Source: Escherichia coli
Lineage (GTDB): Bacteria; Pseudomonadota; Gammaproteobacteria; Enterobacterales; Enterobacteriaceae
NCBI RefSeq assembly: GCF_030013595.1
Contig: NZ_CP122768.1
DNA length: 64,000 nt
Strand: one strand, 5' to 3'
The notes beneath the pieces are model-generated. The model was given only the letters and a program-made list of their open reading frames with translations, was not told where the DNA came from and did not search any database. Below are positions 51,279-60,020 of this stretch, one piece after another. Made by a program: the position numbers and the translations under genes. The number at the start of each line of letters is the position of its first letter. Positions within the stretch are counted from its first letter, which is position 1.

Positions 51279-51360
51279 CGCTAAATCTCAGACCGGGGTG
51301 AAAACTCCGGTTTTGTCATATTTCACCTCTGTATTGGCGTGATGCAAAATGGCATCTGAA

Positions 51361-51447
51361 TCGATCATGGTTTGGCATCCATTTCCGATCACAGTTTGGC
51401 ATCACAATCGATCACGATTTGGCATGCTTCCGCTCATTGATTGGCAT
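51361..51447 (+). repeat. Array of four ~20-bp direct repeats with core TTTGGCAT (iteron-like)
   Basis: TCGATCATGGTTTGGCATCC / CCGATCACAGTTTGGCATCA / TCGATCACGATTTGGCATGC / CTCATTGATTGGCATCC, unevenly spaced (~12 to ~34 bp between cores), between terW-like stop and the IS66 orf1. Confidence 0.6.
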
Positions 51448-51538
51448 CCTGGTGTCGTTACGGGGAAGTCATCTTCACAGGGATCTTCAGTCAGTTAGCA
51501 TTACCGACATCCATTCACCAACTTACCGGAGATAATCA

Positions 51539-51868
51539 ATGTCAAAACCCCGATGGACGCTTGATCAGAAAAAACATCACGTTGCCGCATGGCGCGCCAG
51601 CGGCCTTACCCGTGAACAGTACTGTGAACTTTACGACATTCCGTTTAAATCCCTGCGCCAGTGGCCGCAGGATGTCGCAAAAGCCGAAAAACGAGCCAGA
51701 GCACCAGAAATTATTCCTGTTTCAGTATCTGGCTCTTCCGGAATGACTGATGGCAGACCATTGTCGGATGAGCCTGTCACTCTCTTCCTGCCCGGTGGTA
51801 TCCGGATGTGCTGCCAGCCTTCTCAGTTAACCGATGTTTTCCGGGCTCTTCGCCATGCTGACGCCTGA
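51539..51868 (+). CDS. IS66-family accessory protein orf1 (outer copy)
   Basis: 109 aa MSKPRWTLDQKKHHVAAWRASGLTREQYCELYDIPFKSLRQW (HTH). Confidence 0.65.
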   Translation: MSKPRWTLDQKKHHVAAWRASGLTREQYCELYDIPFKSLRQWPQDVAKAEKRARAPEIIPVSVSGSSGMTDGRPLSDEPVTLFLPGGIRMCCQPSQLTDVFRALRHADA

Positions 51869-52235
51869 TAACGTATTCCTGGTCGTAAAACCCGTCGATA
51901 TGCGCCGGGGTATCGACACACTGACACAGTACGTCCAGAACGAACTTAACGCTGCATGGCATGACGGTGCTGCTTTTGTCTTCACCAATAAAGTCCGCTC
52001 CCGCATAAAAGTTCTCCGGTGGGACAAACATGGCGTATGGCTGTGTACCCGACGACTGCACCGGGGAAGCTTCCGCTGGCCCCGGAAAGGTGATGCCACA
52101 TGGCATCTCACACAGGATGAGTTTCACTGGCTGGTCTTTGGGGTTGACTGGCAACAGGTGAAAGGGCATGACCTGGCAAAATGGGTATACCAGGAAGAAC
52201 CCGAAGATGCTCAGAGCAACGCAATAACTCAATGA
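51834..52235 (+). CDS. IS66-family TnpB-like orf2 (outer copy)
   Basis: ...LVVKPVDMRRGIDTL...VLRWDKHGVWLCTRRLHRGSFRWP parallels other IS66 orf2 copies. Confidence 0.65.
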   Translation: MFSGLFAMLTPDNVFLVVKPVDMRRGIDTLTQYVQNELNAAWHDGAAFVFTNKVRSRIKVLRWDKHGVWLCTRRLHRGSFRWPRKGDATWHLTQDEFHWLVFGVDWQQVKGHDLAKWVYQEEPEDAQSNAITQ

Positions 52236-52277
52236 AATATAATGAATATCCATGCGTGATGTCATATAATCCACCGC

Positions 52278-53108
52278 ATGGATATCTCGCTTCTCAGTAC
52301 CACCAGTGACCCTGAACAGCTTCGCGCTCTGGCAATTGCCATGGTGCAAAAAGTCATGGCTGAGAATGCAGAACTTCAGAACCGTATCCGCATCCTGGAA
52401 GAGCAGATGAAGCTCGCACGCCAGCAGCGTTTCGGTAAAAAATGCGAATCGCTGGCCGGGATGCAGCGTTCCCTGTTCGAAGAGGATGTTGACGCGGATA
52501 TCGCAGAAATCTCGGCGCATCTGGACAAACTGCTTCCTCAGACCGGGGACGAAGAAAAAACAACAACACGTCCTGTTCGTAAGCCCTTGCCTTCACCTCT
52601 TCCCCGTGCTGAAAAGGTTATCCCGCCAGCTGAGGAACGTTGTCCTGACTGTGATGCCCCCCTGCACTTCATTCGCGATGAAGTCAGCGAGAAGCTGGAA
52701 TATATTCCGGCACAGGTCGTGGTCAACCGCTATATCCGCCCGCAGTACAGCTGTCCCTGCTGTGAGAAAGTGTTCAGCGGAAAAATGCCGGCACATATCC
52801 TTCCGAAAAGTGCTGTTGAGCCATCGGTCATCGCACAGGTTGTCATCAGCAAATATACCGACCATCTGCCCCTGTATCGCCAGCAGCACATTTTCTCCCG
52901 AATGGGGGTGGAGCTCCCCGTCAGTACAATGGCGGATATGGTCGGTGTTGCTGGCGCTGCACTGGCCCCGCTGGCAAAATTGTTACGCCACGAGCTTCTG
53001 ACACGGGATGTTATTCATGCAGATGAAACGTCCCTGAGGCTCCTTGATACCCGGAAAGGCGGTAAATCCTGCTCCGGCTGGCTGTGGGCTTACGTCAGCG
53101 GAGAAAGA
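52278..53108 (+). pseudogene. IS66-family transposase TnpC, N-terminal part (interrupted by nested IS66)
   Basis: Cys-rich region CPDCDA...CPCCEK; reading frame runs into the nested element's terminal repeat at 53109. Confidence 0.7.
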
Positions 53109-53138
53109 GTAAGCGTCAACGGAGCACCGTATTGACGC

Positions 53139-54752
53139 TTATTTATTGGTGAGTACTACGTTCCATGGCAGGAGTTCATCAACTCGGTTGGAAGGCCATT
53201 CTGGCAGTACGCTCAGGATATGGCGCAGATACGCTTCCGGATCGATACCGTTCAGACGGCAGGTGCCGATCAGCCCGTACAACAGTGCTCCACGCTCGCC
53301 GCCGTGATCGCTGCCAAAGAACATAAAGTTTTTCTTTCCGAGACAGACTGCACGAAGCGCTCTTTCCGCAGCATTATTATCCGCCTCCGCCAGACCGTCA
53401 TCACTGTAATAACAGAGGGCATCCCACTGATTCAGTACATAGCTGCACGCTTCGCCCAGTCTGGATTTTTTCGACAGCGTACCATTCTTCTCCACCATCC
53501 ATTCATGCAGTGACGTCAGTAACACTTTGCTTCGCTGCTGCCTGACGGCAAGACGCTCTGACTCCGGTAATCCCCGTATTTCATCCTCGATGGCGTACAG
53601 TTCACTGATTCGCTTCAGGGCTTCTTCTGCCGTCGCACTTTTGCTGCTGATGTATACATCGTGGATTTTTCGCCGGGCATGGGCCCAGCACGCAACTTCT
53701 GTCAGTGCACCACCTTCACGTTCTGCACTGAACAGCCGATCGTAACCGCTGAACGCATCCGCCTGCAGGATACCCCGGAAGGGACGAAGGTGTTGTACCG
53801 GATGTTTTCCCTGCCTGTCTGGTGAGTAGGCGAACCAGACCGCCGGTGGCTCTGATGAGCCCGCATTCCGGTCATCCCGGACATACGTCCAGATGCGTCC
53901 TGTTTTTGCCTTTTTTCTGCCCGGTGCCAGCACTTTTACTGGTGTGTCGTCAGTGTGAACCTTGCGGGTGTTCATCACGTAACGGTACAGGGTATCATTC
54001 AGCAGAGTCATTAACTGACAACATGCGTCAACCCAGTTGGAGAGTAATGCCCGGCTCAGTTCGATGCCCTGGCGGGCAAAGATTTCACTCTGACGATACA
54101 GTGGCAGGTGTTCGCAGTATTTTCCCGTTAACACGCGGGCAAGTAATCCGGAGCCCGCGATGCCGCGCTCTATCGGGCGGGACGGCGCTGGCGCTTCAAC
54201 TATACAGTCACATTTTGTACAGGCTTTTTTTACCCGAACAGTGCGGATCACTTTCAGGGCGCTACTCACCAGTTCCAGCTGCTCAGCACTGACTTCCCCC
54301 AGATAATCCAGCTCACTGCCACACTCCGGGCAACAACTTTCTTCAGGCTCCAGACGGTGTATTTCACGGGGAAGATGTGCCGGTAACGGACGACGATGAC
54401 GTGACTGTCGCAACTGGCGGGGAACCTGCGGGTCATCCTCACGCCCACTGTAACGATCGCTTTCCTGTTCGCGTTGTTTCAGTTGGGCCTCAGCCTGTTC
54501 AACCTCACGCTGCAGTTTTTCAGAACGGGTACCGAACAACATCCGGCGCAGTTTTTCTATCTGGGCCCTCAGATGTTCTATTTCCCGCTCCTCCTCTTCG
54601 ATCTTTTCCTCGGCACGTGCCAGTGCAGAGCGCAGGAAGGCCTCCGTCTCTTCAACCAGACTCAGTTGCTGATCTTTCTGACGGAGGGCTTCAGCCTGCT
54701 CAGAGAGCAGCCTTTCCAGCTCAGTGATACGAATGAGGTATTTCCGACTCAT
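53139..54752 (-). CDS. IS66-family transposase TnpC (nested copy)
   Basis: 537 aa; CPECGSEL...CTKCDC zinc-finger-like region; DDE region. Confidence 0.85.
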   Translation of the reverse strand: MSRKYLIRITELERLLSEQAEALRQKDQQLSLVEETEAFLRSALARAEEKIEEEEREIEHLRAQIEKLRRMLFGTRSEKLQREVEQAEAQLKQREQESDRYSGREDDPQVPRQLRQSRHRRPLPAHLPREIHRLEPEESCCPECGSELDYLGEVSAEQLELVSSALKVIRTVRVKKACTKCDCIVEAPAPSRPIERGIAGSGLLARVLTGKYCEHLPLYRQSEIFARQGIELSRALLSNWVDACCQLMTLLNDTLYRYVMNTRKVHTDDTPVKVLAPGRKKAKTGRIWTYVRDDRNAGSSEPPAVWFAYSPDRQGKHPVQHLRPFRGILQADAFSGYDRLFSAEREGGALTEVACWAHARRKIHDVYISSKSATAEEALKRISELYAIEDEIRGLPESERLAVRQQRSKVLLTSLHEWMVEKNGTLSKKSRLGEACSYVLNQWDALCYYSDDGLAEADNNAAERALRAVCLGKKNFMFFGSDHGGERGALLYGLIGTCRLNGIDPEAYLRHILSVLPEWPSNRVDELLPWNVVLTNK

Positions 54753-54782
54753 GACCGTTTTTATAATCCGGCCATGACATTT

Positions 54783-55133
54783 TTACAACATTGTCAGTGC
54801 ATTAAGGCGGGATGTTTTGGGCTGACGCCAGTCCAGTTTATCGAGGAGCATTGCCAGCTGCGAGCGGGTAATGGATACCTTACCGTCACGCACCGCAGGC
54901 CAGATAAACTGGCCTTCCTCCAGACGTTTGGTGAACAGGCACAGACCATCAGCATCAGCCCACAGAATTTTAATCGTGTCACCCCGTCGGCCGCGAAAGA
55001 TAAACAGGTGACCGGAGAAGGGGTTCTCATCCAGCACATGTTGTACCTGTTCTCCCAGACCGTTGAAGGATTTACGCATATCAGTAACGCCGGCAACCAG
55101 CCAGATTCGAGTGCCTGATGGGAGCGAGATCAT
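54783..55133 (-). CDS. IS66-family TnpB-like orf2 (nested copy)
   Basis: 116 aa MISLPSGTRIWLVAGVTDMRKSFNGL... Confidence 0.8.
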   Translation of the reverse strand: MISLPSGTRIWLVAGVTDMRKSFNGLGEQVQHVLDENPFSGHLFIFRGRRGDTIKILWADADGLCLFTKRLEEGQFIWPAVRDGKVSITRSQLAMLLDKLDWRQPKTSRLNALTML

Positions 55134-55555
55134 CGTCCCCTCCCGGTCAGTTCACGGATCAACACCGTGAGCAGCTCTGGTGAAGGATTTTCCAGCGTCA
55201 TGTTACCGTGGCGGAACTCAACTTTACAGGAACTGGCACTGACTGTGCTTTGTGAAGGAGTGGATAAAAGCGGAGTAAGAGCCGCCATAGGCTCTTTCTG
55301 CTCATCAGGCGTTATCTCAACAGGTAATAATTCAACGCCAGCGCCAGAAGAGGTTGTTACCGGAAGACGCCGCGATATACGCCTTTCGTTCTGCCAGAGC
55401 CTGAGCCATTTGAACAGGAGGTTATCATTGATATCGTGTTCCCGGGCAATACGGGCAACAGAGGCTCCTGGTTGTGAAGCCAGTTTAACCATTTGAAGTT
55501 TAAACTCATTTGAAAATGATCTGCGGGGTTCTGAGGATAATATTTTCTGTTCCAT
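55130..55555 (-). CDS. IS66-family accessory protein orf1 (nested copy)
   Basis: 141 aa, near-identical to 15953-16378. Confidence 0.8.
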   Translation of the reverse strand: MEQKILSSEPRRSFSNEFKLQMVKLASQPGASVARIAREHDINDNLLFKWLRLWQNERRISRRLPVTTSSGAGVELLPVEITPDEQKEPMAALTPLLSTPSQSTVSASSCKVEFRHGNMTLENPSPELLTVLIRELTGRGR

Positions 55556-55649
55556 AACAGGTGTCCACTAGTTGAAAAGGTGGGCACCTACGTTACCAAT
55601 ACTGGCTTAATGGCTACATACGGCGGTCAGTTTACGCTTACGAGAAAGA

Positions 55650-56360
55650 AGCGGTCCGCCGGTCGTCTGTTTTGACTCGCAGACCGGACGGGCCCTCAGA
55701 TATCCTGAGGCCTGGCTGCAGGGCTGGTGTGGCGGTACGCTGGTGAGTGACGGATACAGCGTGTACAAATCTCTGGCGGATAATGACCCCGGTATTACAT
55801 CTGCCTGTTGCTGGAGCCACGCAAGGCGCGGTTTCGCAAATCTGTATAAGGCCAGCAGGGAGCCCCGTGCAGCCATGGCGCTGAGAAAAATCGCGGGTCT
55901 TTATCGCATTGAGAAGTTCATCCGTGAACGTCCTGTGGAAAAAATACGGCAATGGCGACAACGGTATTCCCGGCCGATAGTGAATGACCTGTTTGCCTGG
56001 CCTGAAGAGCAGGAGCCGTGCTGTCCGCCCGACGGACCACTAAACAAAGCGATTAATTATATCCTGAACCGGCGCGATGAACTGAGCTGCTTCCTGAGTG
56101 ACGGAGCCGTGCCCCTGGACAACAATATCTGCGAGCGTGCTATCCGCCCGGTGGTCATGGGGCGGAAAGCATGGTTATTCGCCGGTTCACTGATGGCCGG
56201 GAACCGCGCGGCACAGATAATGAGCCTTCTGGAAACGGCAAAACGTAATGGTCTGGAGCCGCATGCCTGGCTGACAGACGTTCTGACGCGTCTACCGGAG
56301 TGGCCGGAAGACCGACTGGAAGAGTTGCTGCCCCTTGAGGGATTTACCTTCTCCGGATGA
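55650..56360 (+). pseudogene. IS66-family transposase TnpC, C-terminal part (outer copy, resumes after nested IS)
   Basis: ...CWSHARRGFANLYKA...LPEWPEDRLEELLPL is the conserved TnpC C-terminus; track ORF 55743-56360. Confidence 0.7.
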
Positions 56361-56570
56361 GTGATACCTGCCATCAGGTGTTCGTGCAGCGGGCCATAAC
56401 CCGCAGTCGGGAGTTGAACGCCTGACGACAGGAAATGAGCCAGAGCAGCGACCACGCGGGCTGACAGTGAGTCAGAACCTGAATCAGCCCGGAGCCATTC
56501 CCGGGGCTGTACTTCATCACCTGCCATCAGTACCCGTGTCAGTACTTCGCGACCTGACGCAATTACCCGA

Positions 56571-56870
56571 CTCAGTTCTTCAGAACCCGCCTCCGATACC
56601 AGCCTGGCGGTCGCCCCTGTGCAACAAAATAAATCAACCATCGTCAGACGGTGATCAATCGTATGCGCTGCCAGTGGCTCGCCTGAAAAATGCGTCAATA
56701 TGAGTTCGCCGGAACAATACCTCAGTTCTTCAGAACCCGCCTCCGATACCAGCCTGGCGGTCGCCCCGGCGCAACAGAATAAATCAACCATCGTCAGACT
56801 GCGATCATTCGTATGCATCGCTGATGATGCGCCCGAAAAACGCGTCAATATGAGTTCGCCGGAATATTAC
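56571..56870 (+). repeat. Tandem direct duplication, 2 x ~150 bp, ~85-90% identical by eye
   Basis: Unit begins CTCAGTTCTTCAGAACCCGCCTCCGATACCAGCCTGGCGGTCGCCCC... at 56571 and again at 56721. Confidence 0.8.
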
Positions 56871-57243
56871 TGACGACACGGTTTGTAGTTACGTTCCTTC
56901 GGTGAGTGAGTACCTGTGCGTCAGGGTAACGCAATCAGTTCAGGTTTAGCGGGGTGTCAAGTCGGTTTGGCTAACCGACCGCAGAATTAACTGTACCTTT
57001 AAAGGTCGCCCCCGATATATCTGCCTGTCAGACATATCGCCGATTCGGTATCTCACTACATAAAACTCCTTAAAAAACAATGCGATTCTGTTGGTACGAA
57101 GCTTTCAGTAAGTCAGTCCGGAGAAGCGCCAGTACGATACAGAATGAGGTTGAAAAAAACGTTCACGTCTGGTCACTTCTTCAAATGTTAAAAAACATCT
57201 CGTAAAGAGCCAGTTTATGCGGGTTCGTTGAGTAGACGTGCGA

Positions 57244-57282
57244 GCGTCACTTTGTCAGCTTTAACGCTGACGAAAGTGACGC
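57244..57282 (+). repeat. Near-perfect 16-bp inverted repeat with 6-nt loop (strong stem-loop) in a ~1-kb ORF-free region
   Basis: GCGTCACTTTGTCAGC - TTTAAC - GCTGACGAAAGTGACGC (one bulged G). Confidence 0.6.
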
Positions 57283-57582
57283 CCGCACAGCTTCAAACTC
57301 CACATGCACACGCAAGCGACCAAATTTCAAATGGTCTTATGCCGTGCGCACAGTCATAAGAAGCGCATGCGGAAAGTCAGAAAATATCTTAAGACGCAGA
57401 TTTTAAAGGCGTTTTTATGCCAGTCTGCCGGGAATACACAGTAGTCCGGTTGTCCGGAAGCACCACGGTAATCCGAAGGAAAAATCAACGTACCTCAATC
57501 ACCGTAGTGATATCCGTTCCCAGAGGCTAAACGGATGTACCACCATAAAGGCATCCTCTTTCAGGCTACGAGGATATTGCAA

Positions 57583-57671
57583 TCACCCGAAGGCGTTTCT
57601 CTCAGATTGCTGAAACATTGGCTGGCAGTCACCCGAAGGCGTCCCTCTCAGACTGCTGGAACATTGGCTGG
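57583..57671 (+). repeat. Tandem direct repeat, 2 x 43 bp separated by 3 bp
   Basis: TCACCCGAAGGCGTTTCTCTCAGATTGCTGAAACATTGGCTGG / TCACCCGAAGGCGTCCCTCTCAGACTGCTGGAACATTGGCTGG. Confidence 0.8.
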
Positions 57672-57826
57672 TCGCAAAAGCGACAGTTAATGCAAATACA
57701 GGTTAACAAAAAGGGAAATCTGCCGTCAACCCAACCATATGAACATGTTGATTTCATTATGAATGTGATGTTCTAATATAAATTAATCAGTAACTTCATA
57801 AAAAGAATATAAGAAACAGATAATGC

Positions 57827-58564: not shown

Positions 58565-58716
58565 AAAAAGAGACAATTCCCGAGATAAAACAAAAGAGCA
58601 TAAACATATGAACCGGAAATTCTATTTCAAAAATATCCTGTGGGGAATGTGCCCCATTATAATATCCATATTGCATCTGATATATGACACACCAACAGAA
58701 GGGTAATGACTCCAAC

Positions 58717-59220
58717 TTACTGATAGTGTTTTATGTTCAGATAATGCCCGATGACCTTGTCATGCAGCTCCACCGATTTTGAGAACGACAGTGACTTCCG
58801 TCCCAGCCTTGCCAGATGTTGTCTCAGATTCAGGTTATGCCGCTCAATGCGCTGAGTATAACGCTTGCTGATAACGTGCAGCTTTCCCTTCAGGCGTGAT
58901 TCATACAGCGGCCAGCCATCCGTCATCCATACCACGACCTCAAAGGCCGACAGCAGGCTCAGAAGACGCTCCAGTGTGGCCAGAGTGCGTTCACCGAAGA
59001 CGTGCGCCACAACCGTCCTCCGCATCCTGTCATACGCGTAAAACAGCCAGCGCTGACGTGATTTAGCACCGACGTAGCCCCACTGTTCGTCCATTTCAGC
59101 GCAGACAATCACATCACTGCCCGGTTGTATGCGCGAGGTTACCGACTGCGGCCTGAGTTTTTTAAGTGGCGGAAAATCGTGTTGAGGCCAACGCCAATAA
59201 TGCGTGCACTGGCGCGACAT
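58717..59220 (-). CDS. insB: IS1 InsB (transposase frame)
   Basis: 167 aa, near-identical to copy A InsB. Confidence 0.9.
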
Positions 59221-59414
59221 CCGACGCCATTCATGGCCATATCAATGATTTTCTGGTGCGTACCGGGCTGAGAGGCGGCGTAAGTGAACTGTAGTTGCCA
59301 TGTTTTACGGCAGTGAGAGCAGAGATAGCGCTGATGTCCGGCGGTGCTTTTGCCGTTACGCACCACCCCGTCAGTAGCTGAACAGGAGGGACAGCTGATA
59401 GAAACAGAAGCCAC
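59139..59414 (-). CDS. insA: IS1 InsA
   Basis: 91 aa, near-identical to copy A InsA. Confidence 0.9.
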
Positions 59415-60020
59415 TGGAGCACCTCAAAAACACCATCATACACTAAATCAGTAAGTTGGCAGCATCACCAACAGAAGCATCGATAAAAGTTGACTTATTT
59501 CTGATACTCAGTGGCCTGGCCCTTCCTTGTTCAATATACCTGACAAAAACAATCACACTAAAATACACATCCATATCATTCTGGAAAAAACCTCTTTTCT
59601 GGTCTTATGGTATATATCATTTTCATCTTGTTTATATAATGACATGTATAGTTTTAGCAATACCTTCTGCAATTATCGTTTTATTCTTTCACTTTTATCA
59701 AAACATCACCAGAAACTGGAAGTGACAACCGCAATAATGAACATAAAAAGGCAAATCAGAATGGCAGTAAATCAATAAAGTACCATTTCATATGAATCAT
59801 CAGAAAAACGGTGGACGCGACATCCAGCACGAGGCAAAACACAGCAACAAAATAAGCCGGATATCGCGCCCTGTACTTTTCTAACTCAACTCCCGGCATT
59901 GTGCAAGTTTTAATCGCAGGTGGATTCAGAGCCACGCCCCCATTGATTCAGCCTGAAGACACGTATATCCTTGGAGAAAGCAGGAATCTCATTGCTGTGA
60001 AATTCCTTACAGAATCTTCA

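Follow-up and report, generated by a model that had tools for sequence, protein, structure and literature searches.

The repeat analysed here lies in a 64,000-nt stretch of Escherichia coli DNA (NCBI RefSeq assembly GCF_030013595.1, contig NZ_CP122768.1), hereafter the window, whose positions are used throughout. The window is a 100% match to a chromosomal island shared by E. coli O157:H7, O145, O111:H8, UMNK88 and other strains. On this island, terW is followed by an IS66-family element, a plasmid-like segment (a hypothetical gene, hok/gef, type B L31 and a traT fragment) and ureG/F/E. Positions 51350-51425, between terW and the left end of the IS, contain iteron-like 23-bp repeats with the consensus TGGCATCACAATCGATCACGGTT (3.3 copies, 76% matches).

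The IS66-family element, which we refer to as the outer element, occupies 51452-56720 on the plus strand and was delineated using the RefSeq annotation of the identical locus, NCBIfam matches and a mosaic identity profile. Its left inverted repeat (IRL; 51452-51480, plus strand), GTGTCGTTACGGGGAAGTCATCTTCACAG, is of the ISEc49 type, and the same left boundary occurs at loci L021, L017 and L051. L021 is the copy of strain CFT073 that PGAP names ISEc49. It shares the GTGTCGTTACGGGG... left end of the window copy and is flanked by an 8-bp target-site duplication (TSD), GCATTAAC; L017 and L051 have other flanks. According to RefSeq, tnpA (51539-51868, plus strand) is followed by tnpB and then by tnpC, which is in two pieces (52278-53108 and 55623-56360, plus strand). 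TnpA matched NF047593 (9e-12), and the tnpC pieces matched NF033517 (2.4e-55 and E 1.7e-60), the match of the 3′ piece spanning 55743-56357. The order TnpA, TnpB and the DDE transposase TnpC is that of the IS66 family.

The two pieces of tnpC are separated by a second IS66-family element, related to IS682 and inserted on the minus strand (53109-55641), as judged from its inverted repeats (GTAAGCG...CGCTTAC), an 8-bp TSD (GAGAAAGA), its annotation and its 537-aa transposase, which matched NF033517 at 1e-133. Because the IS682-like element splits tnpC, the resident outer element is already dead, having been inactivated in cis. At the single-unit island of O145:H28 RM13516 (L014, 1-1848), tnpA of the outer element is also interrupted, by an ISEc23-like IS66 element, such that this locus holds three nested IS66-family elements.

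Downstream of the tnpC stop, the outer element ends in a 360-bp non-coding tail, of which the first part (56361-56570, plus strand) is conserved in all intact copies described below. Within the tail, 56463-56604 comprises three to four imperfect sub-repeats of ~33 bp with the core CAGTACTTC...ACC...TACCCG. The last of these forms the start of each 150-bp unit of the repeat under study, and a solo right-end fragment of Yokenella (L008) retains the core as well. The sub-repeats may be sub-terminal protein-binding sites. Overall, the outer element is mosaic, with three or more alleles contributing to it: its first ~200 bp are of the ISEc49 type, its middle is mostly B-type and its tail is a patchwork of A- and B-type sequence, where B is the allele of the intact plasmid copy L002 and A-type alleles are those of L004 and L007.

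Tandem Repeats Finder reported a repeat at 56571-56864 with a period of 150, 2.0 copies, 88% matches, 0% indels and a score of 469. A separate repeat search of the window paired 56571-56720 (unit 1) with 56721-56870 (unit 2) at 87%. Upon direct alignment, the two units were identical at 131 of 150 positions with no indels. Unit positions 1-47 were the same in both, and all 19 differences fell within positions 48-147. A first-pass annotation of the window had described a tandem of ~150 bp at ~85-90% identity whose divergence is concentrated toward the 3′ part of each unit, and the alignment bears out the identity, the coordinates and the distribution of the differences. The annotation had further placed the repeat immediately downstream of the IS66 tnpC. 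This is roughly right, as 210 bp separate the tnpC stop (56360) from the start of the repeat.

The same annotation had noted a minus-strand ORF that reads through the units and overlaps tnpC, and had offered a repeat-protein remnant as one explanation. The ORF is present: it spans 56057-56848, encodes 263 aa from a TTG start, is open through both units and lies antisense to tnpC. A plus-strand ORF of 57 codons (56700-56873) also crosses the repeat and is annotated by RefSeq in some genomes as a hypothetical protein, WP_000097913.1. Nevertheless, it is scarcely credible that the units derive from a repeat protein on the minus strand or form part of the 57-aa plus-strand ORF. None of the four ORFs crossing the repeat matched an NCBIfam family, and the 263-aa ORF had no Pfam match. 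In a six-frame comparison across alleles, no frame was conserved, the minus-strand frame being broken by indels in L004, L009 and L012. Moreover, the inter-unit differences in the open frame comprise 3 synonymous and 11 non-synonymous changes, the reverse of a synonymous excess, and the TTG-initiated frame runs antisense through tnpC. The 57-aa ORF starts inside the right inverted repeat (IRR) of unit 1, reads through unit 2 and owes its existence to the junction between the units; WP_000097913.1 is thus an artefact of that junction.

A structured or regulatory RNA, or a regulatory site used twice, had also been considered, favoured by the length (360 bp), conservation and short sub-repeats of the non-coding tail. 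However, a scan of 56000-57800 against Rfam 15 at E up to 1 yielded no match inside 56571-56870, its only hits being the STAXI and EFASI-like matches in the flank described below. The folding z-scores of the two units on both strands were unremarkable (−0.01, −1.74, −0.66 and +0.30). The units contained no sigma-70-like promoter and one weak terminator-like site that did not exceed those of shuffled sequences, and the alleles differ from each other by indels and clustered substitutions. With neither a covariance-model match nor an unusual fold, an RNA or regulatory function of the units is very improbable.

The ends of the outer element were defined by its intact copies, which we located on F-type and I-type plasmids and on one chromosome. 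The copy at L002 is 2772 bp long, starts with GTAATGTTCCGGGG... and ends with ...GAGTTCGCCGGAATATTAC; its perfect 8-bp TSD, CACATAAC, begins right after this tip. The copies at L009, L012 and L018 are likewise flanked by perfect 8-bp TSDs (TCATCAGC, GTTTTCTG and ATAAATGC, respectively). All four terminate precisely at the unit end, and each has a single unit in its 360-bp tail. Imperfect terminal inverted repeats of ~20-30 bp occur at both ends of the element: IRL and IRR of the plasmid copy agree at 22 of 29 positions, and the IRL of the window copy agrees with the reverse complement of the unit 1 and unit 2 tips at 20/29 and 18/29, respectively. The shared ending of both units, ...GAGTTCGCCGGAAnnnTAC, lines up with the termini of the intact copies at every base. 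Because the intact copies stop precisely where the unit stops, both units represent the right-terminal 150 bp of an IS, with its inverted repeat included. More specifically, unit 1 (56571-56720, plus strand; IRR at ~56692-56720; tip ...GAGTTCGCCGGAACAATAC) is the right end of the outer element itself, and unit 2 (56721-56870, plus strand; IRR at ~56842-56870; tip ...GAGTTCGCCGGAATATTAC) is an orphan right end of a sibling element carrying the B allele.

These comparisons also bear on whether the duplication is simply part of the element, as it would be if found at the end of every copy. It is not: the four intact, TSD-flanked copies each have one unit. We therefore rejected a two-unit tail as a native feature: a single unit was found in each of eight independent copies or fragments, and the tandems examined all share the same island flank. 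The element is an ISEc49-related member of the IS66 family of ~2.77 kb, with the gene order tnpA-tnpB-tnpC, a 360-bp tail and terminal inverted repeats of ~24-29 bp. Other IS66-family members are 2731-2829 bp long with 8-bp direct repeats (PMC3281130, Table 2), which the present length and repeats fit. The window copy shares the gene order, the ~2.77-kb length, the ISEc49-type left end and the 360-bp tail with ISEc49 and related IS66-family elements of E. coli. It differs from ISEc49 in being a mosaic of at least three alleles, in being split by the IS682-like element and in having an extra, orphan right end. By fixing where the intact copies stop, the comparison locates the actual right boundary of an element that is poorly described.

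The two units correspond to two different alleles. Unit 2 and the terminus of the intact plasmid copy L002 are identical at 150 of 150 positions. Unit 1 together with the 16 bases upstream of it is identical at 165 of 166 positions to the right end of an IS on a metagenome contig (L022) with an unrelated flank, which indicates that the unit 1 allele is a genuine IS terminus elsewhere. Among complete E. coli genomes, no single end of the unit 1 type was found at ≥95% (the best was 92%), the sole close single-end match being the short contig L022. Within unit 1, positions 1-47 are B-type, and the remainder (48-150) is A-type, agreeing with L004 and L007 at all but one base, which lies in the tip. 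The B-type head of unit 1 reflects either an incoming allele that was already mosaic, as is the L022 allele, or gene conversion with unit 2. Together, the matches of unit 2 to the L002 end and of unit 1 to the L022 end and A-type alleles establish that two natural alleles are juxtaposed at this locus.

At the junction, the tip of unit 1 (...GGAACAATAC, ...CCGGAACAATAC) is joined directly to CTCAGTTC..., which corresponds to position −150 of the sibling element. The repeat does not extend past either side of the two units, and the flank is not duplicated. An exact IS tip abutting foreign DNA is the hallmark of a junction made by transposition, as opposed to a duplication by slippage. The first 8 bases past the unit 1 tip, CTCAGTTC (56721-56728, plus strand), are the presumed target octamer at this junction between an IS tip and the interior of a sibling.

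A competing origin is that the final 150 bp of the element were duplicated in tandem where they stand, through slipped replication or unequal crossing-over, and that the copies then diverged or unit 1 underwent gene conversion from another IS allele. Such an event would account for the exact period, the two copies and the identity of their first 47 bp, and the heavily mosaic IS alleles at this locus indicate that conversion does occur. By contrast, it would not predict that the duplicated segment stops exactly at the IS tip while the flank remains single, nor that the same exact-tip boundary recurs in five other stacks with different periods; in addition, the boundaries have no microhomology. 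The pattern of substitutions is equally difficult to reconcile with drift: unit 2 has 0 changes with respect to the plasmid allele, and the 19 changes of unit 1 coincide with another natural allele. Because 5 kb of island around the repeat are near-identical among lineages, drift in place of 19 substitutions in unit 1 alone is implausible. Overall, an origin by duplication in place is quite unlikely. The suggestion that the repeat is a duplicated terminal region of the IS66-family element was therefore correct insofar as both units are the final 150 bp of the element, inverted repeat included, but not in its simple form of duplication in place with later drift, as the units are two natural alleles meeting exactly at an IS tip.

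We consider it likely that the units are the right ends of two sibling IS copies that were stacked by transposition, that the target copy subsequently lost its left part and that the resulting structure is functionless. In the proposed history, one copy would have transposed into the tail of a sibling in the same orientation, or attacked the sibling intramolecularly, at a point 150 bp from the tip of the target copy, of which unit 2 would be the remnant. The left part of the target may then have been lost by homologous recombination between the nested copies or, alternatively, in a single step through an adjacent deletion mediated by the transposase. How the remainder of the target vanished is deduced from the present arrangement. 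TSDs of 8 bp are common to the ISEc49 group and were found in L002, L009, L012 and L018, the ISEc49 of L021 and a composite at L011/L016, but not around the window copy. More specifically, neither tip of the window copy is flanked by a TSD: the left flank, GCATCCTG, matches neither TGACGACA, which follows unit 2, nor CTCAGTTC, which follows unit 1. Because the window copy has no TSD, its insertion history is not directly readable and requires at least one more rearrangement, or else an adjacent deletion. The missing TSD fits either an adjacent deletion or a later rearrangement.

Comparable structures elsewhere inform this history. In pCFSAN004179G (L011/L016), the IS and an extra 23-bp tip are bracketed as a whole by a single TSD, CAGTCGTC, which is exactly the pattern predicted by nesting followed by recombination. 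The 23-bp stack was seen in this plasmid alone. Further stacked right ends were found at unrelated loci, with periods of 18 bp (L017), 48 bp (L052) and 321 bp (L032). In CFT073 (L021), another IS66-like element lies ~61 bp from the right tip of ISEc49 in the same orientation, with the TSD TATGCGCC intact. At L010, the IS is placed 17 bp inside the IRL of an IS682-like element. In O104:H4 (L020), 3 bp separate the tip from an IRL of ISEc43, and the tail is met ~215 bp from its end by the tip of another IS66 element. In one more abutting case, a solo 28-bp tip lies 136 bp beyond an IS end.

A second route to stacking without a full nested copy would be abortive one-ended (replicative) transposition, in which synthesis from the right tip stops at variable points and lays 5′-truncated right ends beside an existing tip. 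In the Tn3 family, one-ended transposition yields products of variable length that start at one inverted repeat. Right-end fragments of the ISEc49 group resemble these products in that they vary in length and all end at the exact tip: solo fragments with exact tips measured ~24-28 bp (L028, L063), 87 bp (L017, L032), ~170 (L008), ~200 (L005) and ~400 bp (L015). Furthermore, stacking was observed at right ends only, with 0 stacked cases in a small sample of 12 left-end contexts found by searches seeded with right-end sequence. As 12 contexts are too few and the two ends were unequally sampled, no left/right asymmetry can be claimed. The composite of pCFSAN004179G argues against the one-ended route: it keeps its original TSD outside the extra tip and has no new duplication around the tip, so that nesting with recombination fits better. 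The transposases also belong to different families and, to our knowledge, the mechanism and chemistry of IS66-family transposition are largely unstudied. On balance, one-ended transposition is an unlikely source of the 150-bp tandem. The solo fragments at L005, L015 and L008 lie in unrelated chromosomal contexts, and one solo right-end fragment adjoins a fimbrial recombinase gene in Yokenella regensburgei.

The recurrence of stacked and abutting ends raises the question of target choice. In a metagenome sample, 3 of ~27 distinct tip junctions entered the last 321 bp of a sibling, which is far above random insertion into a 5-Mb genome, in a sample that is small and was obtained with searches seeded from right ends. 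Neutral retention of insertions of one IS into another contributes to this excess. IS30-type insertion sequences prefer their own inverted repeats as targets. ISEc49-group elements are similar in that insertions recur in sibling ends, both 17-23 bp and 48-321 bp from the tip. Unlike IS30, they showed no IRR-IRL junctions of the (IS)2 type in the small, partly biased sample examined here, and targeting directed by the transposase is unsupported. It is possible, albeit doubtful, that ISEc49-group IS66 elements hit or duplicate the right-end regions of their siblings, through self-end targeting or an abortive one-ended step, the 150-bp tandem then being one among five or more independent events (periods of 18, 23, 48, 150 and 321 bp). 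If so, these events would shed light on target choice in the IS66 family, the sole mildly new point of the present analysis. In the literature on IS683, IS682, ISEc49 and IS66 target choice, we found neither this repeat nor self-targeting described.

Full ISs abutted by a partial IS end are already known, and the present sequence has gone without comment in hundreds of public genomes. Nested IS insertions, including those of IS66 members, are commonplace, and orders of integration have been described (PMC8369957). The repeat resembles nested ISs and the solo-IR or partial-IS remnants of "IS graveyards" in genomic islands in that one IS abuts, with its exact tip, the interior of a second IS, CFT073 providing an un-collapsed case with the TSD intact. 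Unlike typical nested ISs, the partners in the window are siblings in the same orientation, and the remnant left after loss of the left part of the target therefore reads as a tandem repeat. The repeat is probably an ordinary, neutral IS scar, most likely without function. In principle, the second IRR is a putative alternative end for a transposase supplied in trans.

We then considered how the two-unit form is distributed. The unit 1-unit 2 junction occurs in 448 of 5,426 complete E. coli genomes, as does the exact unit 1 sequence (likewise 448). The junction between unit 2 and the flank occurs in 572 genomes, which leaves ~124 with the same island junction and unit 2 as their single unit. 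Single-unit islands were verified in O145:H28 RM13516 and STEC411. The tandem copies examined (L001, L003 and five metagenome contigs) all lie in the flank of the tellurite/urease (ter/ure) island. Over >5 kb, the single-unit island L014 differs from the window by essentially just 150 bp; the one-unit form is therefore most simply a deletion, a direction of change that rests on parsimony. The single-unit islands could have arisen when the heads of the units, identical over 47 bp, recombined and unit 1 was lost. The presence or absence of these 150 bp in the tellurite/urease island (448 vs ~124 genomes) is a possible lineage marker. The stacked ends further explain an unannotated repeat and a spurious "hypothetical protein" in hundreds of genomes of Shiga-toxin-producing E. 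coli. In a scan of one genome per species with a 20-mer of the IRR core, the element was hardly found outside E. coli: the three matches were two metagenome-assembled bins (Dysgonamonadaceae and Sellimonas) and the Yokenella solo fragment.

Finally, the sequence downstream of the repeat carries features of its own. A strong match to the STAXI RNA motif lies at 57534-57685 on the minus strand (134 bits; gathering score 40.5) and holds a 46-bp tandem repeat (57579-57671). An EFASI-like match at 56905-57058 on the minus strand, which begins 35 bp past the IS tip, scored 48.9 bits, just under the gathering score of 51.2. These two matches mark the flank as a segment resembling plasmid leading regions. 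Further downstream, at 58702-59469, the window contains a copy of IS1 with the InsA and InsB ORFs on the minus strand and a 9-bp TSD, CAACAGAAG. The loci L001, L003, L013 and L014 are otherwise near-identical but lack this copy, indicating that it is a strain-specific insertion.
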